Positions 3,531 to 62,319 of a stretch of 64,000 nt of DNA are shown one piece after another. Made by a program: the position numbers and the translations under genes. How positions within the stretch are numbered: position 1 is the first letter of the stretch; every line of letters begins with the position of its first letter. This DNA comes from Thermodesulfobacteriota bacterium (GTDB taxonomy: Bacteria > Desulfobacterota > BSN033 > UBA1163): positions 23,590-87,589 of the forward strand of contig DASPPQ010000068.1 of NCBI GenBank assembly GCA_035625415.1, in the 5' to 3' direction. A model generated the notes under the pieces. That model had not been told where the DNA came from and ran no database searches. It worked only from the letters and a program-made list of their open reading frames with translations.

Positions 3531-3677
3531 CAAACTCCAAATTCCAAATTCCAAATCCCAAATCCCAAGTAAATCCCAAGCACCAATTTCAAAATTTCGG
3601 AACGATTTTATTTGAATTTTGAATTTTGCAGATTGGAGTTTATTTGGAATTTGGTGCTTGTCATTTGGTGCTTTCCT
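3531..3677. repeat. Imperfect palindromic intergenic element with (CCAAAT)n left arm and (ATTTGG)n right arm (family copy B)
   Basis: ccaaattccaaattccaaatcccaaatcccaag...aagcaccaatttc // gaatttggtgcttgtcatttggtgcttt. The arms are reverse complements. Spurious ORFs on both strands translate it. Confidence 0.6.
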
Positions 3678-3679
3678 CA

Positions 3680-4186
3680 TTAGACATGGCATTCCAAGCA
3701 ATCATTCGTTACTTTGTTCTCGGAATGGCAGTTCATGCACCAATTCATCGTCATCTTCACCCATGGCCTGGAGGGTGGTCGCTCGCTTTCAGCAATATTT
3801 CCATGGCAGGTCTGACATGGCAGTTTTCCTAGAACCACATGCCGACGGTGGGAAAAGAAGACGTGATCGGGTTCTCCGTATATTCGTCTCCAGGAAATTT
3901 CTCGTCCCTTTTTTTGATATTGTCTGATCTTTTCTTCTTCTGAGGATTTGGTAACCGGTTCTTTATGGCATTCAAGGCAGGTGGTTAGGTCAGGCATTCC
4001 GGAAAAGTTTTGAGTTTTAAAATAACGGTGACAGGAGTCGCACTCTAACCCCTGTTCAATATGTTTCTTATGGTTGAAGGAGATCGGTTGGCCAGTCCTG
4101 GAGCCAATGCCCAAACGGATGAGGAGGAAGAGTATAAGGAACCCTGCCGCCAATCCAATAAGGAAAAATTTCATGCTGTGAGCCAT
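3680..4186 (-). CDS. Pentahaem c-type cytochrome (ActA-like)
   Basis: Five CxxCH motifs (CDSCH, CLECH, CQTCH, CMNCH, CLECH). N-terminal membrane anchor. Lies immediately upstream of the Mo/FeS subunit genes. Confidence 0.75.
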   Translation of the reverse strand: MAHSMKFFLIGLAAGFLILFLLIRLGIGSRTGQPISFNHKKHIEQGLECDSCHRYFKTQNFSGMPDLTTCLECHKEPVTKSSEEEKIRQYQKKGREISWRRIYGEPDHVFFSHRRHVVLGKLPCQTCHGNIAESERPPSRPWVKMTMNWCMNCHSENKVTNDCLECHV

Positions 4187-9819: not shown

Positions 9820-10557
9820 ATGCGTAACATAAAACTCCTCATTGAATACGATGGAACGAATTATCAAGGATGGCAGGTCCAGCCAGGAGGGCCGACCATC
9901 CAGGGGACGCTTGAAGAGAAGCTGTCACGGCTTACAGGCGAGAGAATTCGTTTGACTGGTTCCGGGAGAACGGATTCAGGGGTTCATGCCTTAGGCCAGG
10001 TAGCTCACTTCAGGACACAGAGCCAGATGGATATCCGTGCAATCCAGAGAGCACTCAACAGTCTTCTCCCTCCAAATATTGTTATTCAAAAGGTAGATGA
10101 GGTTGACGAAGGTTTTCATGCACGGAAGCATTCGAAAAGCAAGGTCTACGAGTACCGAATTCTCAATCGGAATCTTCGGTCAGTTTTTCACCACGGGTAT
10201 GTATGGCATATTCCTCAGAAGCTGAATTTGACGGAGATGAAGAAGGCGGCTCAGAGTTTGATTGGAGAACATGACTTTTCTGCGTTCCGCACGGTGGGCT
10301 CTCCCACTCGTACAACCATTCGAAGAGTGATTAGGGCGGAATGGAAGAGGGGGCGAGACGGCCTCATACGGTTCGAGGTCGAAGCAAACGGCTTTTTGAA
10401 ACAAATGATGAGGTCCATCGTCGGAACATTAGTCGAGATTGGAAGAGGAAAGATGAACGCTGCCGATTTTCGTAAGATCTTAAATTCCAAGGACAGGAAA
10501 GAAGCAGGCCCCACCGCCCCAGCCCAGGGATTATTCTTGAAAGAAGTGAAGTATTAA
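9820..10557 (+). CDS. truA: tRNA pseudouridine(38-40) synthase TruA
   Basis: N-terminus MRNIKLLIEYDGTNYQGWQVQ, GRTDSGVHALGQV catalytic motif, 245 aa. Confidence 0.85.
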   Translation: MRNIKLLIEYDGTNYQGWQVQPGGPTIQGTLEEKLSRLTGERIRLTGSGRTDSGVHALGQVAHFRTQSQMDIRAIQRALNSLLPPNIVIQKVDEVDEGFHARKHSKSKVYEYRILNRNLRSVFHHGYVWHIPQKLNLTEMKKAAQSLIGEHDFSAFRTVGSPTRTTIRRVIRAEWKRGRDGLIRFEVEANGFLKQMMRSIVGTLVEIGRGKMNAADFRKILNSKDRKEAGPTAPAQGLFLKEVKY

Positions 10558-10595
10558 TTGTGGCGCTTGGTTGACGGTAGATCGCTAATCAATCT

Positions 10596-10620
10596 GTAGG
10601 GCAAGGCTTTAGCCTTGCTC
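10596..10620 (+). repeat. REP-like hairpin (GTAGGG + 8-bp stem + TTTA loop), left flank of RAYT
   Basis: gtagg gcaaggc ttta gccttgc tc. The 5' GTAG is the tetranucleotide recognised by REP-associated tyrosine transposases. Confidence 0.6.
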
Positions 10621-10670
10621 AAAAACTTTACCCGATAAACACGGAAATTATCCACAAAAAACGCGTTCGG

Positions 10671-11101
10671 TTGAAGGGTTTCGATTATACGGGCTTCTTT
10701 CACTACTTCGTCACAATTTGCACTTACAAAAAAGAGCGGGTTTTTAAGAATGATCTTCTTTTTGTTAGCTGGCTAACTGACACTTTGCGAGAAAAGTCAA
10801 GTTCTTTTGGGTTTAGAGTCTGGGCATACTGTTTTATGCCGGACCATCTTCACCTTTTGATAGAGGGCAAAGATAACAGTTCGGACAAGAGGGGATTCAT
10901 CTCCTCACATAAGCAATCTACGAGCTTTTATTATAAAAAGAAAACGGGCCTGTCACTTTGCGCACGCGCTGAGAAGAGGAGAAGATACAACGAATGTTGC
11001 ACGCTATATTTTCAATAATCCAGTTAGAAAGGGCCTAGTGGACAACTTCAAGAAATACAAATCTCTTGGCTTCTTTGGATTTGACTTACTCATGGTATAA
11101 A
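10671..11101 (+). pseudogene. REP-associated tyrosine transposase (RAYT)/IS200-like Y1 transposase, frameshifted and truncated
   Basis: N-terminal frame has the HuH motif PDHLHLLIEG. A C-terminal segment in another frame reads ARYIFNNPVRKGLVDNFKKY, the conserved RAYT tail. The two frames cannot be joined without a frameshift and the middle part is missing. Confidence 0.6.
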
Positions 11102-11121
11102 TTTAGCATGTATTGTTTAAG

Positions 11122-11146
11122 AGCAACCCTAAAGGGTTGCCCTACA
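11122..11146 (-). repeat. REP-like hairpin in inverted orientation, right flank of RAYT
   Basis: Reverse complement is gtagggcaaccctttagggttgctc. This matches the left REP except for compensated stem bases. Confidence 0.6.
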
Positions 11147-11162
11147 AACAGGGATATTGGAC

Positions 11163-12296
11163 CTATATTCTAATCAATTCATATTCCCTTGTGCCCATCC
11201 CGATTTCTTCGGCATAGGCAAGCTGAATACTCCAGTTAACCAGCGGATAAATCGCTCTAAATTTGTCTTCTCCGGGTTTCCAGGCTCCTGTGAGTTTGGA
11301 AGTTCGGTTTCCTTCCTGCCCATTCACCAAATCAACCGACGCCTGATCGATGGCAACCGGGTCCTCGGAAGAAAGGATCCCGATATCGTTGACAATCGGT
11401 GTATCAGAATATCCGTAGCAGTCACAGGCGGGAGAGATTTGAGTGAGAAAGTTTAAGTGAAGCGTCTTTCCCTTTTTCTTCTGGATAACTCCATAGGCAT
11501 ACTCCACCATTTTCTTTTGAAAAATAGGGACGCTCTCGTTCCATTGGATTTCAATAGCCCCTGAAGAACAGGTGAGGATGCATTCTCCGCACCCGATGCA
11601 TTTTTTGGGATCGATAAAGGCAATACCCTGTTTGGTTTCGACCTCCGACTGCGGTGGCCGCATCGAGATGGCTTCCTGTGAGCACCGGCTAAGACAGGCC
11701 TTACATCCCTTGCAGGCTTTGCCCTTGACTTGGGGTGAGATATTTGAATGCTGACTCAGCTTTCCTTCACGGCTGGCGCACCCCATTCCCAGATTCTTCA
11801 AGGCTCCTCCGAACCCGGACAATTCATGACCTTTGAAATGGGTGACCGCAATCAGTCCATCCGCCATATAGATCTCTCGGGCGATGGAGACTGTTTTGAA
11901 AATGGGTTTGTCAATCCGAACCTTGACGGCACTATTGCCTCTCAAACCATCGGCAATCAGGATAGGGGCATTCACGACAGACTCTGTGAACCCGTTTTCA
12001 AAAGCGGTGATTAGATGGGAGACCGCTTCACCCCGAGTTCCAACATAGAGGGTGTTGGCATCGGTTAAGAAAGGCTTCCCTTTATATTGTTTGACTCGAT
12101 CCACCACCCTTCGTAAAAAGATGGGTCGAACAAAGGCCGTATTTCCTTTCTCCCCAAAATGGAGTTTAATCGCCACCAAATCCTTCTCCCGGATCTTTCC
12201 CTTCAGATCAGCCCGATCCAGAAGGATGTCCAATTTGTCCAGGAGGGTTTTCCCGGGTTCAACCCTGAGATCCGAAAAAAAGACAGAACTCTCCAT
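11163..12296 (-). CDS. DUF362 domain protein with 4Fe-4S dicluster insertion (second paralog)
   Basis: 377 aa. CKGCKACLSRC and CIGCGECILTC motifs. Core resembles the protein at 8541-9761. Confidence 0.5.
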   Translation of the reverse strand: MESSVFFSDLRVEPGKTLLDKLDILLDRADLKGKIREKDLVAIKLHFGEKGNTAFVRPIFLRRVVDRVKQYKGKPFLTDANTLYVGTRGEAVSHLITAFENGFTESVVNAPILIADGLRGNSAVKVRIDKPIFKTVSIAREIYMADGLIAVTHFKGHELSGFGGALKNLGMGCASREGKLSQHSNISPQVKGKACKGCKACLSRCSQEAISMRPPQSEVETKQGIAFIDPKKCIGCGECILTCSSGAIEIQWNESVPIFQKKMVEYAYGVIQKKKGKTLHLNFLTQISPACDCYGYSDTPIVNDIGILSSEDPVAIDQASVDLVNGQEGNRTSKLTGAWKPGEDKFRAIYPLVNWSIQLAYAEEIGMGTREYELIRI

Positions 12297-14531: not shown

Positions 14532-14659
14532 GTCAAATCTCAAATGTCAAAGCCCAAATACCAAAGGAATGCCCAAATATCTTAATGCGAAAATGTCCTT
14601 TCGACATTTAGATTTTGAGCTTTATTTGAACCTTGGACTTTGACATTTGGAATTTTCGG
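14532..14659. repeat. Imperfect palindromic intergenic element with CAAAT arms (family copy C), central 7-bp hairpin
   Basis: ggtcaaatctcaaatgtcaaagcccaaataccaaagg ... ctttggactttgacatttggaattttc. Centre is aaatgtc ctttc gacattt. Confidence 0.55.
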
Positions 14660-14665
14660 TTTAGC

Positions 14666-17130: not shown

Positions 17131-17139
17131 AATAAATAA

Positions 17140-17291
17140 AAAGGCCGAATTGAAATAAGCGGGGGAACCAGTTTTTAGGGGTGAATTCTAGACATCTAGA
17201 GAGGATATCCCTTAATCCTAACCCGTCAGCTAACTCCGCAGGCGACTAAGGGAGAGAATCGAACGCAGGGGATCCTCCTCTGCTTTTTTTT
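17140..17291 (+). promoter_or_regulatory. Candidate c-di-AMP (ydaO/kimA-class) riboswitch leader with intrinsic terminator, upstream of kdp operon
   Basis: Contains GCGGGGGAACC, GGGGTGAAT and ACCCGTCAGCTAACTCCGCAGGCG, recalled from memory as c-di-AMP riboswitch signature blocks. Ends in hairpin gcagggg-atcct-cctctgc plus T8. Confidence 0.5.
17265..17291 (+). terminator. Rho-independent terminator/attenuator hairpin + T-run in kdp leader
   Basis: 7-bp GC-rich stem (one G-U pair), 5-nt loop, followed by tttttttt. About 195 nt upstream of the first kdp-associated ORF. Confidence 0.6.
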
Positions 17292-17335: not shown

Positions 17336-17362
17336 GTAGGGATAACGAATGGTTCGTTTCCC
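17336..17362 (+). repeat. REP-like GTAGGG hairpin (imperfect) in kdp leader
   Basis: gtaggg ataacgaa tgg ttcgtttccc. Preceded by a direct repeat gaatgtggtg x2 (17307-17330). Confidence 0.35.
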
Positions 17363-17486: not shown

Positions 17487-17582
17487 ATGAACCTTGAGTT
17501 TTGGCTGATAGCGACATTTCTATTGGGCCTTGTAGCAATGGGAATAGTGTACTTATTCTTCATCGCTTGCGAGAAAATTTAA
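17487..17582 (+). CDS. 31-aa hydrophobic peptide with strong RBS (KdpF-like or leader peptide)
   Basis: taggagga is 7 nt upstream of the ATG. MNLEFWLIATFLLGLVAMGIVYLFFIACEKI forms a single predicted TM helix. Not in the ORF track because it is under 60 aa. Confidence 0.35.
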   Translation: MNLEFWLIATFLLGLVAMGIVYLFFIACEKI

Positions 17583-17724: not shown

Positions 17725-19554
17725 ATGTTTATCCAAATCTGGCTTCTACCTTTTTGTTTACTCGCAGCAGCGACCCTGATCGCGTTCCCTTTGAGTCGCT
17801 ACATGGGGTGGATCATGGATGGGAAATACCGGCCTTTGCCGGTGCTGGGCTGGTTCGAAAAGCGTTTGGACAGTGGCTCCCAGAACTGGAAGCAGTATAC
17901 CATCGCATTGCTCATTTTCAACACGCTGATGTTCATCTATGGCTATGTGGTTCTGTCACTCCAGCAGTGGATGCCACTCAATCCGGACGGCAAGGGGATG
18001 ATTTTCCCCACGACTATCTTTCAAGCCGTGACCTCCTTCATGACGAACACGGACCTCCAGCACTATTCGGGCGAACAGGTTTTGTCAAACTTCAGCCAGA
18101 TTTTCTTTGCCATCTTTATGCTGTTTGTGTCTGCGGCGGTCGGCCTATGTGCACTGACTGCGATGATCCGACTCTTCCGTGGCGAGTCCAAAATTGGCAA
18201 CTTCTTTGTAGACATGTGGCGGGTGCTGGTTTACATGTTCGTGCCGACCGCCTTGATTCTCGCCTTCATCTTTATGGTCCAGGGTAGTCCGATGACCTTT
18301 AAAAGTTCTTACCAGGTTTCCACACTCGAACCTGCGGCCATGGGAACCACGGACAAGGGCGAGGCAAAGCAGCAGACGATCATAGTGGGGCCGGTGGCAG
18401 CATTCGAGTCTATGAAGATGCTTGGAACCAACGGGGGTGGATTTTACGGCATGAATTCCGCGCACCCATTTGAAAATCCGACGGGGTTCACGAATTTTTT
18501 CAACACTCTGGGCATGATGATCTTTCCGTTTGCCCTCGTGTTGATGTATGGCCGAATGCTCGGCCGGATGCGGCATGCCTACGTCATTTTCTCAGTCATG
18601 TTGGTGTTGATGGCTGGCACGATCGTCTGGGCAGTCTACTACGATACACTGAAACCAAACCCGGGATTAACCGGCCATCCTATTGCACGAACATACGAAA
18701 TTCCCAGTGGAACAGCACCGGGTGGAAAACGAGTAGTAAGTCTGCCAGCACTCCCAGGGCTGCCGGTGGACCAGTACCTGGGTAACCTTGAAGGGAAGGA
18801 AATGCGATTCGGGATTTCGGCAGGGGCCACCTTCGATGCACTGACGACAGATGTGACGTGCGGCGCGGTGAATGCAGAGGAGAACAGCCTCAACCCGATT
18901 GCAGCCTTGTCGCCCATGGTCGGGATGTGGCTCAACTGTATCTACGGCGGCAAGGGGGTAGGGATGATCAATCTGTTGCTCTACTTAATCATCGGGATCT
19001 TCGTGGCTGGGATGATGGTGGGCCGGACTCCCGAGTATCTGGGTAAGAAAATCGGGGGCCGGGAGGTGAAACTGGCAATCATCGCCCTGCTGGTCCACCC
19101 CTTCATGATTCTCTTCCCTACCGGGCTGTTTGCTGCGACAAGCTGGGGGCTCAAGGCAGTCAGCAACCCTGGTGCGGATGGCTTTTCACAAATCCTGTAC
19201 AACTTTTCCTCGGCCTCCGCCAATAATGGCTCGGCATTCGACGGATTATCAGTTGCCTATGGTTTGGTAAGTAATGCAAATCCGGCGCCGACAGCGATCC
19301 CATGGAATATCGCAGCGGGCCTCGTTGTCGTCTTCAGCCGTTATCTGCCGATTGTGGCGCCGATCGCCATGGCAGCATTTCTCGGAGAGAAGAAATCGAG
19401 CCCTTTTGGTCTGGGGACCCTGCGCGATGATACAGTTACCTTCGGTCTCCTCCTGATCGGGACGATTCTTATCGTCGGAGCGCTCCTTTTTTTGCCTGTC
19501 GCAGCACTGGGACCGCTTGCAGAACACTTAGGTCCCATTCCTTTCGGAGGCTGA
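17725..19554 (+). CDS. kdpA: Potassium-transporting ATPase subunit A
   Basis: 609 aa polytopic protein with typical KdpA selectivity-filter-like repeats (NGGGF region). Sits between kdpF and kdpB. Confidence 0.9.
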
Positions 19555-19754
19555 CCAGGAAGCCTTTATGGCTGCTTATTAAGAAACTTCATTGGTGCCC
19601 TAACAATGATGAATTGCGAGATGAATCAAAGGAGTCCGATATGAATAGAGTACCCGATAGTAAAGAAACCGTGGAGACAGTTCCCTTCAGTTCGGAGCAG
19701 CCGCGATCACTGCGCCGTGTGAAGCCAAGAGGGTTGATAGAAAAGGAAACCGGG

Positions 19755-21803
19755 ATGGCGGCCTTGAAACAGGCTTTCGTGATGCTGCGGCCTGATATCC
19801 AATGGAAGAATCCTGTGATGTTTGTGGTCGAGGTGGGCGCCTTTCTGACCCTTCTGTTTATCGTACAGGCGGCATGGGGTAGGCAGACCAGTCAGGTTCC
19901 GATTGCGTATTTTATCGCCCTTGACGCATGGCTTTTTCTGACGGTTTTGTTTGCGAATTTTGCAACAGCCCTTGCCGAGGCTCGTGGTAAAGCCCAGGCC
20001 GATTCACTCAGGCGAGCCCGTCACGACACGGTGGCCTACCGTTTGAATGTTGCCGGAGCCGTCGAGGAAGTTTCCTCGACGGTTTTGAAACTTGGCGATC
20101 GGGTGGTCATACAGGCAGGGCAAACGATTCCCGGGGACGGGGAGATCATTGAAGGGATCGCCTCCGTGGATGAGTCGGCGATTACTGGCGAATCGGCGCC
20201 GGTCATCCGCGCCGCGGGCGGCGACCGATCGGGCGTGACCGGAGGCACCGTGGTCCTTTCGGATCGGATCATTGTTCGGATTACCAGCGGGGCTGGTGAT
20301 TCGTTCCTCGACCGTATGATCGCGCTGGTGGAAGGGGCCATCCGTCAGCGATCTCCGAATGAGATTGCTCTCACATTATTACTGTCGGCCTTTACACTGG
20401 TCTTCTTGATCGTCGTCATTCCGCTTTGGCCCATGGCCTGGAACGCCGAACAGTATATGATGGGATATCTAGGTCTCCAAGAACCCTTGAGGAGTCTCGG
20501 CACGGATGTTCCGACCCTCATTGCGCTCCTGGTCTGCCTCATCCCCACTACGATTGGCGCTTTGCTTGCAGCCATCGGGATTGCAGGCATGGATCGCGCG
20601 CTACAGGCCAACATCATCGCTAAGAGTGGCAAGGCAGTGGAGTTAGCTGGTGACATCGACGTTGTGCTCCTCGACAAGACGGGCACGATCACGATAGGGA
20701 ACCGGAACGCAACAACCTTCTTGCCAATCGGAAAGTATTCGGCTGCCGACGTTGGGCGGCTTGCTGCCATAGCGTCCGCCGCTGACGAGACTCCTGAGGG
20801 AAAGAGCATCGTCAGGTTGTTCGAGAAGCAAAGCCGAACTCCGGTCATCGTGCCGCCGGACGCCCAGTTTGTGCCATTTACAGCCCAAACGCGCATGAGC
20901 GGCATCGATCTTCCTGACGGCCGGCGAATACGAAAAGGAGCGCCAGACGCCATCACGAAATTCGTCGAGAGCAAGCAAGGCAGCGTGCCGGGTGATCTCA
21001 ATGCATTGGTTGATAGCGTCGCATCCAAAGGGGCAACGCCCTTAGTCGTGGCTGATGACGGCCACATTGCGGGTCTGGTCGTTCTTGAGGATATCCTGAA
21101 ACCTCATATGCGGGAGCGCTTCGTGCGGCTGAGGAAGATGGGACTTAGGACCGTCATGATCACCGGGGATAACCCTCTCACGGCTGCGACCATTGCCGCA
21201 CGAGCAGGGGTCGATGACTTTCTCGCCCAGGCCACGCCCGAGACCAAGCTCTCTTATATCCGTAAGGAGCAGGCTGGTGGAAAGCTTGTCGCCATGATGG
21301 GAGACGGCACGAACGACGCACCGGCTCTGGCCCAGGCGGACGTTGCCCTCGCCATGAACGCAGGTACGCAGGCAGCTAAAGAAGCGGCCAACATGGTCGA
21401 TTTGGACAGTGACCCCACCAAGTTGATCGAGGTGGTAGAAGTGGGAAAGCAGCTTTTGATAACGCGAGGCGCCTTGACGACCTTCTCAATAGCCAATGAC
21501 GTGGCCAAATACTTTGCGATTATTCCAGCGCTATTTGCAGGGACTTTGCCATGGCTCAAGGCGGTTGACATCATGCATCTGCATTCACCGACCTCAGCCA
21601 TCCTGTCGGCTATCATCTTTAACGCGCTCATCATCCCTGCGCTCATCCCCGTCGCACTCAAAGGAGTTAAATACCGGCCTCTCGGTGCCGATGCTCTGTT
21701 GCGCAGGAACCTTCTGATCTGGGGACTGGGAGGCGTGATTCTACCGTTTATCGGCATCAAACTGATTGATCTCATCATGGTGGGTTTTCATTTGACCATT
21801 TGA
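19755..21803 (+). CDS. kdpB: Potassium-transporting ATPase subunit B (P-type ATPase)
   Basis: DKTGTIT phosphorylation motif, TGDN and [10 protein letters not shown], about 682 aa from the Met at 19755. The ORF could start earlier, at 19614 or 19641. Confidence 0.9.
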
Positions 21804-22959: not shown

Positions 22960-23024
22960 GTCATTCCGGGCTTGACCCGGAATCCAGTTATTTCCCCCCT
23001 GGATTCCTGCTTCGTAGGAATGAC
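22960..23024. repeat. Nested-stem structured element X1 (outer GTCATTCC/GGAATGAC, inner GGAATCCAG/CTGGATTC, two local hairpins)
   Basis: gtcattcc-gggcttgaccc-ggaatccag-ttatttcccccc-ctggattc-ctgcttcgtag-gaatgac. A second copy with compensatory hairpin changes is at 38070-38145. Confidence 0.5.
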
Positions 23025-38069: not shown

Positions 38070-38145
38070 CGTTATTCCTGCGGAAACAGGAATCCAGGAT
38101 TTTCCTTGTGAGAACTTTTCTGGATTCTCGCTTTCGCGGGAATGA
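38070..38145. repeat. Nested-stem structured element X2 (second copy of the 22960-23024 element)
   Basis: gttattcc-tgcggaaaca-ggaatccag-gattttccttgtgagaacttttc-tggattc-tcgctttcgcg-ggaatgac. Sits in a convergent intergenic region (HD-GYP + strand / mazG - strand). Confidence 0.5.
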
Positions 38146-38909: not shown

Positions 38910-41723
38910 ATGGTAATGGATTACCGTCACACATTAAATCTCCCTAAAACGGACTTCCCCATGAAGGCCAATTTGGCGAAAAGGGAACCTGAGATGCTGG
39001 CGGCCTGGGAGGCGATGGGAATCTATCGTCAAATCATCCAAGGGGCCAAAGGAAGGCCGAAATATATCCTTCACGATGGACCTCCCTATGCAAACGGAAA
39101 TATTCATATCGGGACCGCCTTGAACAAAATCCTAAAAGACTTCATCGTTAAATCGAAGTTCATGACCGGGTTTGACAGCCACTACGTTCCGGGATGGGAC
39201 TGCCATGGGTTACCCGTTGAACACGAAGTGGAAAAAGGCCTCGGCGCGAAAAAAGCCGGTCTCAGTATCGTCGAAATCCGGCGCAGATGCCGGGAGTACG
39301 CAGCAAAATTTGTCGGGATTCAGAAAAAGGAATTTAAGCGGCTCGGAGTTTTCGGGGAATGGGAAAATCCATATCTGACCATGAATTTTGAATATCAGGC
39401 AACCATTGTTCGAGAGTTCGGAAAGTTCCTTTTGGATGGCTTGGTTTACAAAGGAAAAAAGCCCGTCTACTGGTGTCCTACCTGCAAAACGGCTTTAGCT
39501 GAGGCCGAGGTAAAATACGAAGATATCCGTTCCTCCTCCATCTATGTGAAATTTAGAATGATCTCCGATATCGGGAGGGAGTTCCAAAGCCTCAGTGGAA
39601 AACCCGTTTTCGTCATCATTTGGACGACCACTCCCTGGACAATCCCGGCTAATTTGGCAATTGCACTCCATCCTGATTTCACTTATGCAGCAGTGGACGT
39701 GGGGGGTGAAGTCTACATCCTGGCAGAGGGTCTCTTGGAAGAGGTGATGAAGAAATTCGGAATCAAGACATATAAGGTATTGGAGAAATTTCCGGGGAAG
39801 AGATTAGAAGGACTGAAAGCCAGGCATCCCTTCCTCGACCGGGACTCCCTGATCATTCTTGCCTCCTACGTGACTTTGGACGCCGGAACAGGAAGTGTTC
39901 ACACCGCGCCCGGCCATGGTCAGGAGGACTATGAGAGTGGAGTGCAATATGGCCTGGAGGTCTACAGCCCGGTGGACGATGACGGCCGTTTTACCCCGGA
40001 TGTCCTTTTCTTTGCGGGACAGTTCGTTTTTGATGCGAACAACGCTGTAAATAAGAAGCTGGCCGAGGTCGGGGCACTCCTGAAAGAAGAGGTCATGGTG
40101 CATTCCTATCCCCATTGTTGGCGGACCAATGACCCGATTATCTTTCGAGCTACGGAGCAATGGTTCATTTCCATGGATAAGAAAGGATTGAGACAGAATG
40201 CTCTGAAAGCCATCGGTGAGGTGACCTGGATCCCTCCCTGGGGAAGGGATCGTATTCACGGGATGATTGAGAACCGACCGGATTGGTGTGTGTCCAGGCA
40301 GAGGGCCTGGGGCATTCCCATCACCGTTTATTACTGTTCGGCCTGCGAGCAACCCCTGATCAGTCGGCAGGTCATTGACCACACCGTCCGCCTTTTTGAG
40401 ACGGAGGGAGCGGACATCTGGTTTGAAGAGGGGACGAATCGCCTCTTGCCAAAAGGAACCCAATGTCCTGCATGCGGCGGAAAAGATTTTAAGAAGGAGA
40501 CGGATATTCTGGATGTCTGGTTTGACTCAGGAGTTTCCTATGCGGCGGTCCTGGAGAAACGGAAAGAGCTTGAGTATCCGGCCAGTCTTTATCTGGAGGG
40601 AAGCGATCAACACCGGGGATGGTTCCACAGCTCTCTTCTCACTTCTGTCGGCACGAGGGGTCGTGCTCCCTATCTCTCCGTTCTTACCCACGGGTTTGTC
40701 GTGGACGGAGAGGGGAAAAAGATGTCGAAGTCAGCGGGGAATGTGATCGCACCCGAAGAGGTGATCAATCAGCTAGGAGCCGATGTCCTGAGACTTTGGG
40801 TTGCGGCGGAGGATTACAAGGATGACATCAAGATCTCTAACGAAATCCTGAAACGGCTGGCGGATAGCTATTTCCGCATTCGAAATACGTACCGCTTTCT
40901 ATTAGGAAATCTCTACGACTTCCACCCCGAGAAAGACCGGGTTCCCTATCGTGACCTTGAAGAGATGGATCGATGGGCCCTCCATCGGCTCCAGAAAGTC
41001 ACCGCCAGAATTCGCGAGGCTTATGAACGGTTTGAATTCCATGTGGTCTACCACAGCGTTCAGAATTTTTGCGCCGTGGAGATGAGTGCCCTTTATTTCG
41101 ATATTTTGAAGGACCGGCTTTATACATTCCCCTCCGGATCCCGGGGCCGGAAATCGGCGCAGACCGCACTGTACGAAATTTTAGAGGTTTTGACTTGCCT
41201 CATGGCTCCCATTCTTTCGTTTACTTCGGAAGAGGTCTGGAAATATCTTCCTCAAAGACCGGACAAGGCTGAAAGTGTTCACCTGACTGCCTTTCCCGAA
41301 GTGCAGGGTGAATATCTGGACGATGCATTAAGTGAAAGGTGGGACCGGATCTGGGAGATTCGAGCCGTGGTGACCAAGGCTTTGGAAGAGGCCCGGAGGG
41401 AGAAGGTGATCGGGCTCTCGCTGGACGCACAAGTCCATGTCTATCTTCCTGAAAAGGTCTTTTCATTCCTTAAATCTTACGAGAAGGACCTAAAGTCAAT
41501 TTTTATCGTCTCCTCGGTCACCCTTCATCCCGCTGTCAACGGAACCGGGGATGAAAAGGAAACGAGGGTGGAAGTACTCCGGGCAGAGGGCAAGAAATGT
41601 GAGAGATGCTGGAATTACGAAGTGACTGTGGGGGAGCATCCGGAGCATCAGACGATCTGCGGCAGATGCGTCGAGGCGATCCAGGGAGCAAGCACCAAAT
41701 CCCAAGCACCAAACACCAAATAA
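38910..41723 (+). CDS. ileS: Isoleucine--tRNA ligase (type 1, Zn-finger C-terminus)
   Basis: PYANGNIHIGTALNKI (HIGH) and KKMSKSAGN (KMSKS). C-terminus CERCWNY...CGRCV. 937 aa. Confidence 0.95.
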   Translation: MVMDYRHTLNLPKTDFPMKANLAKREPEMLAAWEAMGIYRQIIQGAKGRPKYILHDGPPYANGNIHIGTALNKILKDFIVKSKFMTGFDSHYVPGWDCHGLPVEHEVEKGLGAKKAGLSIVEIRRRCREYAAKFVGIQKKEFKRLGVFGEWENPYLTMNFEYQATIVREFGKFLLDGLVYKGKKPVYWCPTCKTALAEAEVKYEDIRSSSIYVKFRMISDIGREFQSLSGKPVFVIIWTTTPWTIPANLAIALHPDFTYAAVDVGGEVYILAEGLLEEVMKKFGIKTYKVLEKFPGKRLEGLKARHPFLDRDSLIILASYVTLDAGTGSVHTAPGHGQEDYESGVQYGLEVYSPVDDDGRFTPDVLFFAGQFVFDANNAVNKKLAEVGALLKEEVMVHSYPHCWRTNDPIIFRATEQWFISMDKKGLRQNALKAIGEVTWIPPWGRDRIHGMIENRPDWCVSRQRAWGIPITVYYCSACEQPLISRQVIDHTVRLFETEGADIWFEEGTNRLLPKGTQCPACGGKDFKKETDILDVWFDSGVSYAAVLEKRKELEYPASLYLEGSDQHRGWFHSSLLTSVGTRGRAPYLSVLTHGFVVDGEGKKMSKSAGNVIAPEEVINQLGADVLRLWVAAEDYKDDIKISNEILKRLADSYFRIRNTYRFLLGNLYDFHPEKDRVPYRDLEEMDRWALHRLQKVTARIREAYERFEFHVVYHSVQNFCAVEMSALYFDILKDRLYTFPSGSRGRKSAQTALYEILEVLTCLMAPILSFTSEEVWKYLPQRPDKAESVHLTAFPEVQGEYLDDALSERWDRIWEIRAVVTKALEEARREKVIGLSLDAQVHVYLPEKVFSFLKSYEKDLKSIFIVSSVTLHPAVNGTGDEKETRVEVLRAEGKKCERCWNYEVTVGEHPEHQTICGRCVEAIQGASTKSQAPNTK

Positions 41724-41807
41724 GCTCCAATGAATAGAATTCAAGTTTCCAAAAGAAAAAGTCTCGGTCATTGGGATTTGGAATTTAGAATTTGGAATTT
41801 AAGCACC
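41688..41807. repeat. Imperfect palindromic element with CCAAAT arms (family copy D); left arm lies inside the ileS 3' end
   Basis: agcaagcaccaaatcccaagcaccaaacaccaaataa (last 11 codons of ileS) ... cattgggatttggaatttagaatttggaatttaagcacc. Confidence 0.6.
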
Positions 41808-47412: not shown

Positions 47413-47440
47413 GTAGGGTGCGTTCCCAGAACGCGCTGTC
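47413..47440 (+). repeat. Imperfect REP-like GTAGGG hairpin upstream of rpe
   Basis: gtaggg tgcgttc cca gaacgcgc. The 6-bp stem is conserved, the rest diverges. Confidence 0.3.
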
Positions 47441-48123: not shown

Positions 48124-48129
48124 CGGAAG

Positions 48130-48282
48130 TACCAAGTTCCAAGCACCAAATCCCAAATAAATTTCAATCACCAAAATCCGAAAAGCCGGGATGGTCATTT
48201 GAGATTGAAATTTGGGCGTAGGGAACGGTTTCAAACCGTTCCCTAAAGGTATTTGGAATTTGTGATTTGGGATTTAAGACAA
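48130..48282. repeat. Imperfect palindromic element with CCAAAT arms (family copy F) enclosing a central REP-like hairpin (48218-48245)
   Basis: accaagttccaagcaccaaatcccaaataaatttcaatcaccaaaatccg ... gtaggg aacggtt tca aaccgtt ccc ... ggtatttggaatttgtgatttgggatttaag. Confidence 0.6.
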
Positions 48283-50395: not shown

Positions 50396-51691
50396 CTATC
50401 CTGCCACAGGATTCGGGCCAGACTTCTCCCTCTGCTCCTTCTCCGTCTCCCATATGGAGATGACCGGGAAAAGTTTCGAGAAGAGGACGAAAGCCAGAGT
50501 GAACCCTGCAAAAAGGCCAGCCGTCATAGACCACTCCACCCAAGAAGGGCTATAAGCCCCTCGGCCGTAAGGAAGACGGGGTTGGGTGAAAGAGGGAATG
50601 ATGATGAGGAATCGTTCCAGCCACATCCCAATAATGATCGAAATTGACGAGATCAGAAGTCCTGGAATGGTGCGCCGCCAGATGAGCATTGGAAAAGGAA
50701 AGAAAAAACAGAGAACAGTCATCGTCCAAAAGAGAGGAGCGTATTTACCCGTCAGCTTGCTCCATAGGACCGCAAGCTCATAGGAATCGCCTCCATAGCC
50801 TGCCGTCAGGTGTTCGGCAAAAGTAAAGTAGAACCATAGTAGTGTGAAGACGAGTAGCAGCAATCCCATATTATTGAAGTGGTAGGGCGTCAGATAGCCC
50901 TCCAAATGATAAACCTTCCTTAGAACAATGATGACCACAATGATTGTGGCAATCCCCGAAAAGATGGCTCCCGTTACAAAATAGGGGGCAAAGATCGAAC
51001 TATGCCACATGGGCTGTGTCTGCATTCCAAAAACCCAGGAGACCACTGTATGAACACTCACGGCGATAGGGATGACAGCGATACACAAGATGCCTATCGC
51101 CTTTCCCAAATTGCGTTGCTGTCTTTCCGTTCCCATCCACCCGAAGGAGAGGGGCTTATATAGCCATCTTCGGCCCGGGAACCGGTCCCTGAGGAAGGCA
51201 ACGTCAGGGATCATCAGTACCAAAAGGAAAATATTGCTGACGGTGAAGTAGGTCATGATGCACGTAAAATCCCAAATAAGGGGAGACTTAAACTGTGCAT
51301 GGAGGGCCACCCAGTAGAAGAGGTAAGATCGACCGAGGTCGAAGAGGATATTTGTCGGGCCTGCCGCCAGGGCGAAAACAGTCACAGCCTCTGCAGCACG
51401 GCCGAAAGGAGTCCCCCATCGGGCGTGAGTGATTCTTAGCACTGCCGAGACCAGAGCACCCGCATGGCTAATCCCGATGAAGAAGACGAAATTGACAAGG
51501 TAGAGAGCCCATGACACGGGGTGGCCCATCCCGGTCTCTCCTAAACCCTCGATAAATTGCCAGACAAAAGCGATGACAGACCAGAGGACAACCGCTGAAA
51601 GCAAACCTGTCACGATCACAGAACCTCTCCCCCATCGGGTCAGCGGTTCGATCAGGCGGCTATGCTTTTGCGCAACAGCGTCACTGTCCAT
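50396..51691 (-). CDS. NrfD/PsrC-family quinol-interacting membrane subunit (ActC-like)
   Basis: 431 aa, 10 predicted TM helices. [20 protein letters not shown]. 11-nt overlap with the FeS gene. Confidence 0.75.
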   Translation of the reverse strand: MDSDAVAQKHSRLIEPLTRWGRGSVIVTGLLSAVVLWSVIAFVWQFIEGLGETGMGHPVSWALYLVNFVFFIGISHAGALVSAVLRITHARWGTPFGRAAEAVTVFALAAGPTNILFDLGRSYLFYWVALHAQFKSPLIWDFTCIMTYFTVSNIFLLVLMIPDVAFLRDRFPGRRWLYKPLSFGWMGTERQQRNLGKAIGILCIAVIPIAVSVHTVVSWVFGMQTQPMWHSSIFAPYFVTGAIFSGIATIIVVIIVLRKVYHLEGYLTPYHFNNMGLLLLVFTLLWFYFTFAEHLTAGYGGDSYELAVLWSKLTGKYAPLFWTMTVLCFFFPFPMLIWRRTIPGLLISSISIIIGMWLERFLIIIPSFTQPRLPYGRGAYSPSWVEWSMTAGLFAGFTLAFVLFSKLFPVISIWETEKEQREKSGPNPVAG

Positions 51692-52382
51692 CGTCCCATT
51701 CCCCTTCTTTCAAATAGAAGACTTTTGGTTCCGTCCCTAGATCCTCCATCAGCCGAAAGGCACGTTTGCTCTTGGAGAGCTTAGAAACTCTACTTTCGGA
51801 GTCATTCAAATCACCGAAATAGAGGGCTTCGCTGGGACAAGTCTCGACACAAGCGGGAGTAACTTCGCCATCCTTAATCGTTCGGTTCTCTTTCTTTGCA
51901 TTCATCTTGGCTCTTCGAATCCTTTGAATACAAAAATTGCACTTCTCCGTGATGCCCTTTCTCCGGGGGTAGACATCTGGATTCAACCCTTTCTTATACG
52001 CTTCCGGCCAGGAAGGCGGATACCAGTTGAAATAACGCACCGTATAAGGGCAGTTGGAGATACACATCCTCACCCCGATGCAACGGGAATAGACTTGTGC
52101 GACAATGCCTTCCGGATTTTTGTAGGTGGCTTCAACAGGGCAGACCTTGGTACAGGGCGGTTTATCACAATGCATGCAAGGCAGGGGATTGAAGCGCATC
52201 TCCACATTGGGATAGGCTCCCTTGATCTCATGGATGAGATTCATCCAGAATTTTGCCCTTCCCAGTTTGGCGTATTTTTCTCCCATAATGGGAATATTAT
52301 TCTCCTGGCGGCAGGCCACGACGCAGGCCTGACAGGCGGTGCATTTATCTAAATCAATCACCATTCCCCAGCGATACATCAT
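51681..52382 (-). CDS. 4Fe-4S ferredoxin-type subunit (PsrB/ActB2-like), paralog of 287-970
   Basis: [29 protein letters not shown] plus three further Cys clusters. 233 aa. Confidence 0.8.
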   Translation of the reverse strand: MMYRWGMVIDLDKCTACQACVVACRQENNIPIMGEKYAKLGRAKFWMNLIHEIKGAYPNVEMRFNPLPCMHCDKPPCTKVCPVEATYKNPEGIVAQVYSRCIGVRMCISNCPYTVRYFNWYPPSWPEAYKKGLNPDVYPRRKGITEKCNFCIQRIRRAKMNAKKENRTIKDGEVTPACVETCPSEALYFGDLNDSESRVSKLSKSKRAFRLMEDLGTEPKVFYLKEGEWDDGQ

Positions 52383-54894: not shown

Positions 54895-55036
54895 GCGTTT
54901 AAAATCCCAAATCACAAATTTCAAATCGCAAATAAGCACCAATTTCGAATTTCCAATGACCGAACACATTGTATTTCCAATTTGAGCGATTGGAAAATTT
55001 ATTCGAAATTTGGCGTTTGGAATTTGGTGCTTCCGT
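54895..55036. repeat. Imperfect palindromic element with CCAAAT arms (family copy G)
   Basis: aaaatcccaaatcacaaatttcaaatcgcaaataagcaccaatttcgaatttccaatg ... cattggaaaatttattcgaaatttggcgtttggaatttggtgcttccg. Confidence 0.6.
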
Positions 55037-60995: not shown

Positions 60996-61051
60996 GTAGG
61001 GGGCTTGATTCATCAAGCCCCCTAATAGGGCTCAATGAATTGAGCCCCTAC
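60996..61051. repeat. BIME-like pair of convergent REP hairpins upstream of sco1
   Basis: gtagg gggcttga ttca tcaagccccc, then taata, then gggctcaa tgaa ttgagccc ctac. The second is reverse-oriented; its reverse complement is gtaggggctcaattcattgagccc. Confidence 0.65.
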
Positions 61052-61761
61052 AACATATTGTGTGCGCGTATTCGGTAAATCATATTAAGAGACGGTCCCC
61101 AACGGAGAGAGATCAGAGCTAAAATATATTGATGCGTATGTAATAGTAATCTACGGGAAAAGGGTTGATATCGTAAATGGGGAATTCACTGTATTTGGGT
61201 GGAAATCTTAAGGTATTTTTTGGGGGATTCTTCTTATCCAGCATCGCGGACCTTGAAATTTCTCCCTCCAATGATTGGCTCTAACTAAAAGGTGTAAAAG
61301 TTAGAGTTAGAGAATGGGGGACGAGAAAACAATTTTGACCTGCGGGAATTATTTTACACTGAAAGAAAGTTAGAGAGAATTTTGAGAAGATTAGAATTGA
61401 TTTGACATCGAGAATAGATTAGATGTTAAATATAAGCAGGAGGCAATGGGTCTTTCGGCATCTGTCCAGGGGTACGGCGATGGGAGTCAATGAATAAAAG
61501 CCCTTGTAGCTCTAACGTGCCCGCGGCGGGGGTGACTGATTTGGGCTACAAGGGCTTTGCTTTATTCGCTGCCTCATATTAAGGGTTTACATTATGTTTT
61601 AATGTATATCCCCGTGATATTATAACAATGTGTTAAGCAACGGACCTAGCCATTTAGGTGTTGAAAGAAGGGGAACTTCAACTGCCATGATATTTCAGTT
61701 TTGCGAAGTCATTGTCGAATAGGCCTCGTGAGTTCGACCATTTGAGGGGGAGGTTACGGCA

Positions 61762-62319
61762 ATGGAGGTAACTCGATTGGTCCCAAAAGAGAGGAGAGGG
61801 CTTGTCGTTGTGATTACAGGCAACGGTAAGGGAAAGACGACATCCGGTCTCGGTATTGCGGTTCGGGCATGCGGTCACAACATGAGGGTCTGTATCATCC
61901 AGTTCATGAAGGGTGATATCTATGCAGGTGAATGGGATGGCGTAAAGAAGATGGGTTGCGAGGTGGAGCTGATTTCCACTGGCAAAGGGTTTTGCGGTAT
62001 TCAGGGAAATCCCTATCCTTACAAAGAACACAGAGCGAATGCTCAGGAGGCGATCAAATTAACGCATCAGAAAATGGAATCAGGCCGGGAAGATATTCTT
62101 ATATTGGATGAAATCAACAACGCTCTGCACCTTCGACTGGTGGATCTGGAACAGGTCTTAGAAATCATCCGACGCAAGCCCCGTTTGATGCATCTTGTTT
62201 TGACCGGACGGGACGCCCATCCTCAAGTGGTCGAGCTAGCGGATACGGTCAGCGAAATTAAGGAAGTGAAGCACGCCTTTAGCAAGGGGATTGAACCGCA
62301 GCCCGGGATCGATTATTAA
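61762..62319 (+). CDS. cobO: Cob(I)yrinic acid a,c-diamide / cob(I)alamin adenosyltransferase (CobO/BtuR family)
   Basis: GNGKGKTTSGLG P-loop and IQFMKG. 185 aa. Confidence 0.8.
   Translation: MEVTRLVPKERRGLVVVITGNGKGKTTSGLGIAVRACGHNMRVCIIQFMKGDIYAGEWDGVKKMGCEVELISTGKGFCGIQGNPYPYKEHRANAQEAIKLTHQKMESGREDILILDEINNALHLRLVDLEQVLEIIRRKPRLMHLVLTGRDAHPQVVELADTVSEIKEVKHAFSKGIEPQPGIDY

Follow-up and report, generated by a model that had tools for sequence, protein, structure and literature searches.

A decaying RAYT gene between two inverted GTAG-tagged REP hairpins at the truA-DUF362 locus of an uncultured Thermodesulfobacteriota lineage

In the 64-kb stretch of DNA analysed here (64,000 nt, hereafter the window), which belongs to an uncultured member of the Thermodesulfobacteriota from a sulfate-reducer-like lineage, the truA gene (9820-10557, + strand) is followed by a convergent gene for a DUF362/4Fe-4S protein (11163-12296, - strand) and then by the EF-G gene. 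Between truA and the DUF362 gene lies a RAYT locus (10596-11145), which consists of a Y1/HUH transposase pseudogene and two GTAGGG-tagged hairpins that flank it in inverted orientation. The pseudogene extends on the + strand from its former start codon, now ACG (10641-10643), to a TAA stop codon (11098-11100), and the two hairpins are located 39 nt past the truA stop codon and 17 nt past the DUF362 stop codon. No match was obtained at this locus in an Rfam search.

The left REP (GTAGGGCAAGGCTTTAGCCTTGCTC, 10596-10620, + strand) begins with the GTAG tag (10596-10599) and folds into a 9-bp stem with one G.T pair (10599-10607/10612-10620) closed by a TTTA loop (10608-10611). A CT dinucleotide abuts the tag on its 5' side in seven of the eight lineages that were compared. 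The right REP (GTAGGGCAACCCTTTAGGGTTGCTC, 11145-11121, - strand) is in the inverted orientation, with its tag at 11145-11142. The core of the flanking REPs pairs perfectly over 7 bp and is closed by a TTTA loop. A repeat finder joined the two hairpins into a 45-nt inverted repeat (10595-10639/11102-11146, 76% complementary). As single-stranded DNA, the hairpins fold with energies of -7.8 and -9.4 kcal/mol (z-scores of -3.0 and -4.6), and both surpassed 200 of 200 shuffled sequences. The stems differ from each other in a compensatory manner (CAAGGC/GCCTTG on the left vs CAACCC/GGGTTG on the right), and this difference is identical in every orthologous locus. A first-pass annotation, made from the letters of the sequence, had already described a degraded RAYT between inverted GTAGGG hairpins, and the flanks bear this description out; the left hairpin starts exactly where that annotation had placed it, and the right one is present but shifted by 1 nt from the 11122-11146 that it had given.

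The two halves of the transposase signature lie in different reading frames, as the first-pass annotation had recognized. The upstream frame, which reads ...FRVWAYCFMPDHLHLLIEGKD...KKKTGLSL, contains PDHLHLLI, in which H-L-H (10845-10853, + strand) represents the HUH motif. The C-terminal signature ARYIFNNPVRKGLV, which includes ARYIFNNPV, is in a second frame reading ...RRGEDTTNVARYIFNNPVRKGLVDNFKKYKSLGFFGFDLLMV up to the stop codon; this frame contains the codon of the catalytic Tyr (11005-11007, + strand) and the YIFNN helix (11005-11019), with its Asn at +4. In an alignment of 11 intact homologues (157-167 aa; 56-79% amino acid sequence identity to the remnant), the HUH motif and the Tyr and Asn of the helix are invariant. 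Y1 transposase similarity was found by a profile search, in which the upstream fragment alone scored 32.6 bits against Pfam Y1_Tnp (cutoff, 23). Against the NCBIfam model of REP-associated tyrosine transposases, NF047646 (REP_Tyr_transpos; cutoff, 80), the repaired remnant, consisting of the two joined fragments, scored 72.8 bits, falling below the cutoff because of a 17-nt deletion, and six intact orthologues or homologues scored 86.6-110.7 bits. The scores against the IS200 profile NF033573 (transpos_IS200; cutoff, 55) were 22.7 bits for the remnant and 21-37 bits for the six intact homologues. Because the intact homologues pass the RAYT profile and their IS200 scores are far below the cutoff, the gene is, by profile, assignable to the RAYT family and not to IS200. 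A database search returned 427 homologues, mostly of ~158 aa, the best of which shows 78% amino acid identity. The sole sequence match in the PDB is E. coli TnpAREP (4ER8; E-value, 5e-5; ~25-30% identity), and its alignment spans the HUH motif, WQ..F/YxEH, and YIxxNPV, pairing HLH with HMH and the YIFNNPV region with YIYINPV.

Two inactivating lesions were identified in the window copy. One is the loss of the start codon (ATG to ACG at 10641-10643), which is ATG in all intact orthologues according to both the protein and DNA alignments. The other is a 17-nt deletion with its junction at 10958-10961 (+ strand), where the DNA alignment shows CTTTG-GCAARTWAAYTATTATG-AGCA in the orthologues. The deletion has removed the invariant WQxxYY and shifted the frame, so that the HUH motif and the catalytic Tyr are no longer readable together. 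Six contigs, each assembled independently from a different sample (three from ENA, two from JGI, and one from Logan), share the ACG codon and the 17-nt deletion with the window in identical form; their TruA protein is also identical, and their ~605-nt truA-DUF362 interval shows zero or one difference to the window. Because of this identity in six independent assemblies, both lesions are real; the frameshift noted in the first-pass annotation is thus genuine, and the start codon loss comes in addition to it. The ACG start either preceded the deletion or is independent of it, because a related contig (L181) has ACG without the deletion. In the window copy, 11 of 60 family-invariant residues are changed, vs 0-7 of 60 in the 11 intact homologues when each was tested alike. 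The dN/dS ratios between the window copy and its orthologues are 0.22-0.42, vs 0.16-0.24 among L001, L003, L004, and L010; of these, L010 has a nonsense codon of its own. The dN/dS ratios and invariant-residue changes indicate some relaxed constraint and a fairly recent gene death.

Orthologues of the RAYT gene were found at the same syntenic site in >10 contigs with 75-99% DNA identity, and the gene order DUF362-truA-RAYT-DUF362(-)-EF-G is kept in L001-L010 and L181-L183. In the metagenome contigs L001-L009, intact orthologues (70-78% amino acid identity) are present at exactly the same site. L010, a GTDB MAG labelled as Thermodesulfobacteriota, shows 75% amino acid identity and 84.5% DNA identity over the syntenic block. 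A tblastn search of the 64-kb window with 120 homologues detected no second RAYT, the pseudogene being the only match. RAYTs are known to be single-copy and vertically inherited genes (PMC5581495), and the distribution observed here appears to match this single-locus, vertically inherited pattern.

In at least four further lineages, the RAYT at this site was inactivated by different lesions. The ACG start is present without the deletion in L181, and L183 has a 1-nt frameshift. L010 contains a nonsense mutation (CGA to TGA) at codon 50, and L182 has a 54-nt in-frame deletion that eliminated the first beta-strand, accompanied by mutated REPs that include a GTAG to GCAG change in the tag. In P0064, which is known from its protein sequence alone, a frameshift is located in the C-terminal region ahead of the Tyr. 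L186 has an ATG start together with the deletion, so that three pseudogene alleles (ACG with the 17-nt deletion, ACG only, and ATG with the 17-nt deletion) coexist in related samples. When compared with window positions 10558-11165 and with L181, L186 is a mosaic: it matches the window exactly in its 3' half and diverges from it in its 5' half. This structure seems to indicate homologous recombination within the locus between co-occurring strains. These lesions make it evident that this clade of Thermodesulfobacteriota can do without the RAYT.

The two flanking hairpins are the best-conserved segments of the locus across the eight lineages. Their mean pairwise differences are 4.1% (left REP) and 5.0% (right REP), compared with 24-40% in the adjacent spacers (31-40% in those beside the left REP) and 23% at third codon positions. 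The left REP is identical in L001, L003, L004, L010, L181, and L183, and the hairpins are still perfect where the RAYT is dead, namely in the window, L181, L183, and L010. This strong conservation could partly reflect a role of the hairpins in the flanking transcripts.

The flanking REPs belong to a class that is also found with RAYT homologues in other phyla. For this comparison, we used a strict pattern consisting of GTAG, 1-2 nt, a 7-bp stem, a T[TC][TCA]A loop, and the complementary 7 nt, with up to one mismatch, and a set of 80 loci from GTDB genomes that encode RAYT homologues (29-75% amino acid identity). Most of these 80 loci have inverted GTAG-tagged REP flanks, in which GTAG and 1-2 nt precede a hairpin with a GC-rich 7-bp stem and a loop of TTTA or TTCA. 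The 80 loci contain 323 strict hairpins, 204 of which are located within 400 nt of the RAYT gene, and the density farther off is 1.05 per 10 kb; control loci yielded 1 in 415 kb and shuffled sequences yielded 0. The REP class of 23 nt can be written as GTAGGGCAA-NN-CTTTAG-NN-TTGC. Homologues with ~45-65% identity (best tblastn segment) are flanked by GTAGGGCAAGGCTTTAGCCTTGC or by its stem variants (CC, AC, and others), and hosts of the GTAGGGCAAGGCTTTAGCCTTGC class include Scalindua, Brocadiaceae, WOR-3, Syntrophaceae, Elusimicrobiota, and other MAGs; the Kuenenia locus (L014) contains only near-variants of GTAGGGCAAGGCTTTAGCCTTGC. In total, the RAYT clade was seen together with the 23-nt REP in Thermodesulfobacteriota, anammox Planctomycetota, WOR-3, Elusimicrobiota, Zixibacteria, and others. 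REPs of the GTAGGGCAAGGCTTTAGCCTTGC class are multi-copy in the other phyla, often as several copies or in tandem. Among REP instances, which had been pre-selected for pairing, we counted 134 distinct paired stem variants. As far as can be judged from these comparisons, the near-invariance of the REP across phyla is among the least ordinary aspects of the locus, together with the lack of an expanded REP population seen in this lineage and the recurrent, independent loss of the enzyme beside conserved hairpins.

In four RAYT loci of distant genomes from other phyla (L020, L024, L029, and L058), the REPs beside the RAYT form regular tandem arrays, such as 42-nt units in which GTAGGGCAAGGCTTTAGCCTTGC is joined to a constant spacer or runs of half-REPs such as GGTAGGGCTCAACTTCGC. 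Because of their superficial resemblance, these arrays could be mistaken for CRISPR arrays.

The window itself contains 20 occurrences of GTAGGG on both strands, six of which are directly followed by a hairpin of at least 7 bp, compared with a background of 1.7% of positions (binomial P ~8e-7). The strict pattern is found at exactly four sites in the 64-kb window (10596+, 11145-, 60996+, and 61051-), and shuffled sequences contain 0.035 on average. The latter two sites form a tail-to-tail doublet (60996-61024 on the + strand and 61026-61051 on the - strand) with TTCA loops, located 48 nt upstream of the SCO1-cox operon. With two inverted REPs, a short spacer, and a larger hairpin, the doublet has the layout of a REPIN/BIME, and its fold reaches -21.8 kcal/mol (z-score of -7.1). 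It shares the tag, spacing, and stem length of the flanking REPs and differs from them in stem sequence. Among the relatives, it is a doublet in L170, a singlet in L171 and L172 (81% identity), and absent from L173 and L174. Because of this doublet/singlet/absent distribution, it appears to behave as an inserted REP-like element. The doublet is probably related to the RAYT-flanking REPs, and a link to this particular RAYT enzyme is plausible.

L170 and the window, which represent the same species, are 99.7% identical, with 32 mismatches in 11.6 kb. At 61006-61013, the loop of the perfectly palindromic 60996 hairpin is flipped between them (TTCA in the window vs TGAA in L170), with the stem unchanged. 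The palindrome thus seems to have been inverted in place rather than altered by two point mutations.

The first-pass annotation had also proposed further REP copies of the same build at 17336, 47413, and 48218 in addition to the pair at 60996-61051. Hairpins are indeed present in the sequence at all of these positions, but the three single ones do not match the strict pattern, none of the listed hairpins shares the stem sequence of the flanking REPs, and the proposal holds for the doublet only, with 48218 being doubtful. The sequence of L010 orthologous to the 17336 hairpin is GTGGAAATAATAAATGGGTCGTCTAGG..., which has neither a tag nor a clean stem. The nearest relative at 47413, L090, has the homologous non-hairpin sequence TTAGAAGGTGCTTTCTTAGAACACAG, and the 47413 fold (z-score of -1.9) is no better than those of shuffled sequences. 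The hairpins at 17336 and 47413 are thus local sequence and not inserted REPs, because the orthologous sequences of close relatives lack a GTAG hairpin. The 48218 hairpin is a perfect 12-bp palindrome headed by GTAGGG, is outside the spacing of the family, and forms the centre of an inverted array of CCAAAT/ATTTGG heptamers, where a different hairpin is present in L090 and L091; its status as a REP is accordingly questionable. No additional copy of the flanking-REP stem sequence was found in the 64-kb window, nor was the flanking REP sequence found outside the RAYT locus in ~120 kb from the relatives. The support for a REP family dispersed through this genome is weak.

Two other types of small repeats were encountered. 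The heptamer array around 48218 belongs to a second intergenic repeat class, found at 1065-1127, 3532-3680, 14535-14660, 41690-41800, 48127-48280, and 54897-55035, which consists of arrays with a 7-8 nt period that closely follow genes and whose CCAAAT../ATTTGG.. arms make up long, imperfect inverted repeats. The relatives have analogous arrays at the same place with other units (GCATAGC/GCTATGC and GGATTGC), and the arrays resemble the STRR-type heptamer repeats of cyanobacteria. The second type is a hairpin of the form (GTC)ATTCCGGG-loop-CCCGGAATCCAG, present at 22963-22983 and 38074-38093 in the window and at ~14880-14960 in L010. CTGGAT and GGATTC are the hexamers most common beside hairpins in the window. 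This hairpin is a widespread small palindromic element that is insertion-polymorphic between the window and L010. A c-di-AMP riboswitch (RF00379, 98 bits) at 17133-17259 (+ strand), followed by a terminator-like T-run, precedes two tiny kdpF-like ORFs (starting at 17488 and 17601) and kdpA/kdpB-like genes (17725-21803), and L010 has an extra ~270-nt insertion between the riboswitch and kdpF that carries the ATTCCGGG...CCCGGAATCCAG hairpin.

Other features of the window include a stem of ~14 bp (AAGCCCTTGTAGC...GCTACAAGGGCTT) around ~30 nt at 61482-61573, which precedes a cob(I)alamin adenosyltransferase gene (61762-62319) by ~190 nt and is kept in all five contigs L170-L174, with a variable surrounding spacer. 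It had no match in Rfam at the gathering threshold and may represent an unannotated RNA or regulatory structure. In addition, the repeat finder revealed that positions 1-970 and 51438-52380 are paralogous gene segments (70-81% identical) from two gene clusters of the molybdopterin-oxidoreductase/4Fe-4S type.

We interpret the locus as a decaying REPtron, namely a single vertically inherited RAYT with two inverted GTAG REPs between truA and the convergent DUF362 gene, and assign this reading a probability of roughly 0.9. Judging from the enzymes of E. coli, Stenotrophomonas, and Marinomonas, the intact HUH/Y1 enzyme would bind the REP folded as single-stranded DNA, recognize the 5' GTAG tag plus the stem-loop, and cut at the nearby CT via a 5'-phosphotyrosine link, a reaction that could move or multiply REPs. 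TnpAREP requires the GTAG tag and the palindrome and cleaves at CT 5' or 3' of the REP (PMC8266576, PMC3479197), and in REPs that are perfect palindromes the loop sequence is also a recognition determinant (PMC8266576). With its ACG start and 17-nt deletion, the window enzyme is dead and the flanking REPs are intact relics, in a lineage whose REP family has presumably stayed unexpanded and in whose sister lineages the RAYT appears to have been lost repeatedly.

Several known systems are close to this arrangement. The E. coli TnpAREP/REPtron (4ER8; Group 2 RAYT) similarly combines the HUH motif and a single Tyr with inverted 5'-GTAG REPs, a CT beside the tag, and a single syntenic locus. However, the REPs of E. 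coli occur in hundreds of copies and form an imperfect palindrome whose bulge is essential, whereas those described here have a perfect 7-bp stem and no expanded population was seen. The Group 3 REPtrons of Stenotrophomonas maltophilia and Marinomonas sp. MWYL1 (PMC8266576) have perfect-palindrome REPs preceded by GTAG, and the loop of the Marinomonas REP is TTTA as in the window (PMC8266576), but these systems are gammaproteobacterial and have large REP populations. GTAG-tagged palindromic repeats have been described as stem-loops with GTAG at one end that occur as singletons and dimers, mostly near the 3' ends of genes, and that flank RAYTs (Di Nocera et al. 2013, PMC3733652); the architecture of the window REPs seems to fit this super-family. 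GTAGGG, Kuenenia, and Deltaproteobacteria are unmentioned in the main text of that paper, and on this basis the sequence class of the window REPs is undescribed there. Frameshifted or lost RAYTs followed by REPIN decay have been reported in Neisseria, E. coli, and P. chlororaphis (bioRxiv 10.1101/2021.07.10.451892). The RAYT of N. gonorrhoeae and the RAYT-less strains of E. coli and P. chlororaphis resemble our case in the lineage-wide inactivation by frameshift and in the REP/REPIN relics. In Neisseria, however, a large REPIN population is decaying, whereas almost none exists here and the inactivation recurs independently in sister lineages. Since RAYTs with GTAG REP flanks and frameshifted RAYTs have both been published, the window locus is ordinary to a specialist.

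The decaying REPtron has to be weighed against three other explanations. The locus could be the remnant of an ordinary autonomous IS200/IS605 element with the hairpins as its subterminal LE and RE. IS200/IS605 TnpA belongs to the same HUH/Y1 superfamily and also recognizes hairpins in single-stranded DNA, Y1_Tnp is named 'Transposase IS200 like' in Pfam, a weak transpos_IS200 match exists, and horizontal mobility could explain the near-identical REP and RAYT unit in several phyla. However, the IS200 profile scores (21-37 bits vs a cutoff of 55) contrast with the passing of the RAYT model by the intact relatives, and the hairpins are inverted and 5' GTAG-tagged as is typical of REPs, whereas IS200/IS605 ends are on one strand. 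Furthermore, the element occupies one syntenic site down to ~75% DNA identity, giving no sign of transposition, and a second copy is absent from the window. We regard an IS200/IS605 origin as very improbable. Since metagenome assemblies often contain frameshifts confined to a single contig, the gene might be intact and its frameshift an artefact of assembly or sequencing; this is hardly conceivable here, because the ACG codon and the 17-nt deletion agree in six independent contigs with at most one SNP in ~605 nt, and a clean 17-nt deletion is unlike a homopolymer-type error.

The remaining explanation is that the hairpins serve primarily at the 3' ends of truA and the DUF362 gene, as mRNA stabilisers or terminators, that they are conserved on this account, and that their link to the transposase is secondary. 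It would account for the short distances to the two stop codons and for the perfect hairpins beside dead RAYTs, and REPs near the 3' ends of convergent genes are the commonest arrangement in REP-rich genomes (PMC3733652). On the other hand, RAYT homologues of other phyla that have unrelated neighbouring genes are bracketed by the same hairpins, which hence travel with the transposase rather than with truA or DUF362; a T-run is absent 3' of either hairpin, and the REPs of L182 are mutating alongside its damaged RAYT. Such a primary 3'-end function is improbable in our view, and the hairpins may have had a dual role, serving both the transposase and the 3' ends.

The decaying REPtron bears on annotation, since the ~606-bp 'intergenic' gap between truA and DUF362 consists of a RAYT pseudogene and its REPs and is neither regulatory DNA nor a novel ORF. 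It also provides a small natural series of RAYTs outside Gammaproteobacteria, intact in some lineages and broken in others in five or more different ways at the same site, with the flanking hairpins as the best-conserved 25-mers. With this series, the decay of REPs could be timed from the loss of the RAYT, or their retention for the benefit of the host could be tested. A farther-reaching reading, which we consider unlikely at present, is that the RAYT clade and its near-invariant 23-nt REP, always paired as inverted GG-type and CC- or AC-type copies, constitute a very old multi-phylum unit, and that this lineage has a 'minimal REPtron' without a REP population, in which the RAYT is repeatedly lost but transposase-independent selection keeps the hairpins, for instance because they may serve as structures at the 3' ends of the truA and DUF362 genes. 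In the REPIN-RAYT 'symbiosis' model, the benefits of REP and RAYT are inseparable; if the minimal REPtron were true, the benefit of the REP would be separable from that of the RAYT. The repeated loss of the RAYT with conserved hairpins may leave room for the hairpins to serve the host at the 3' ends of the adjoining genes, truA and DUF362.
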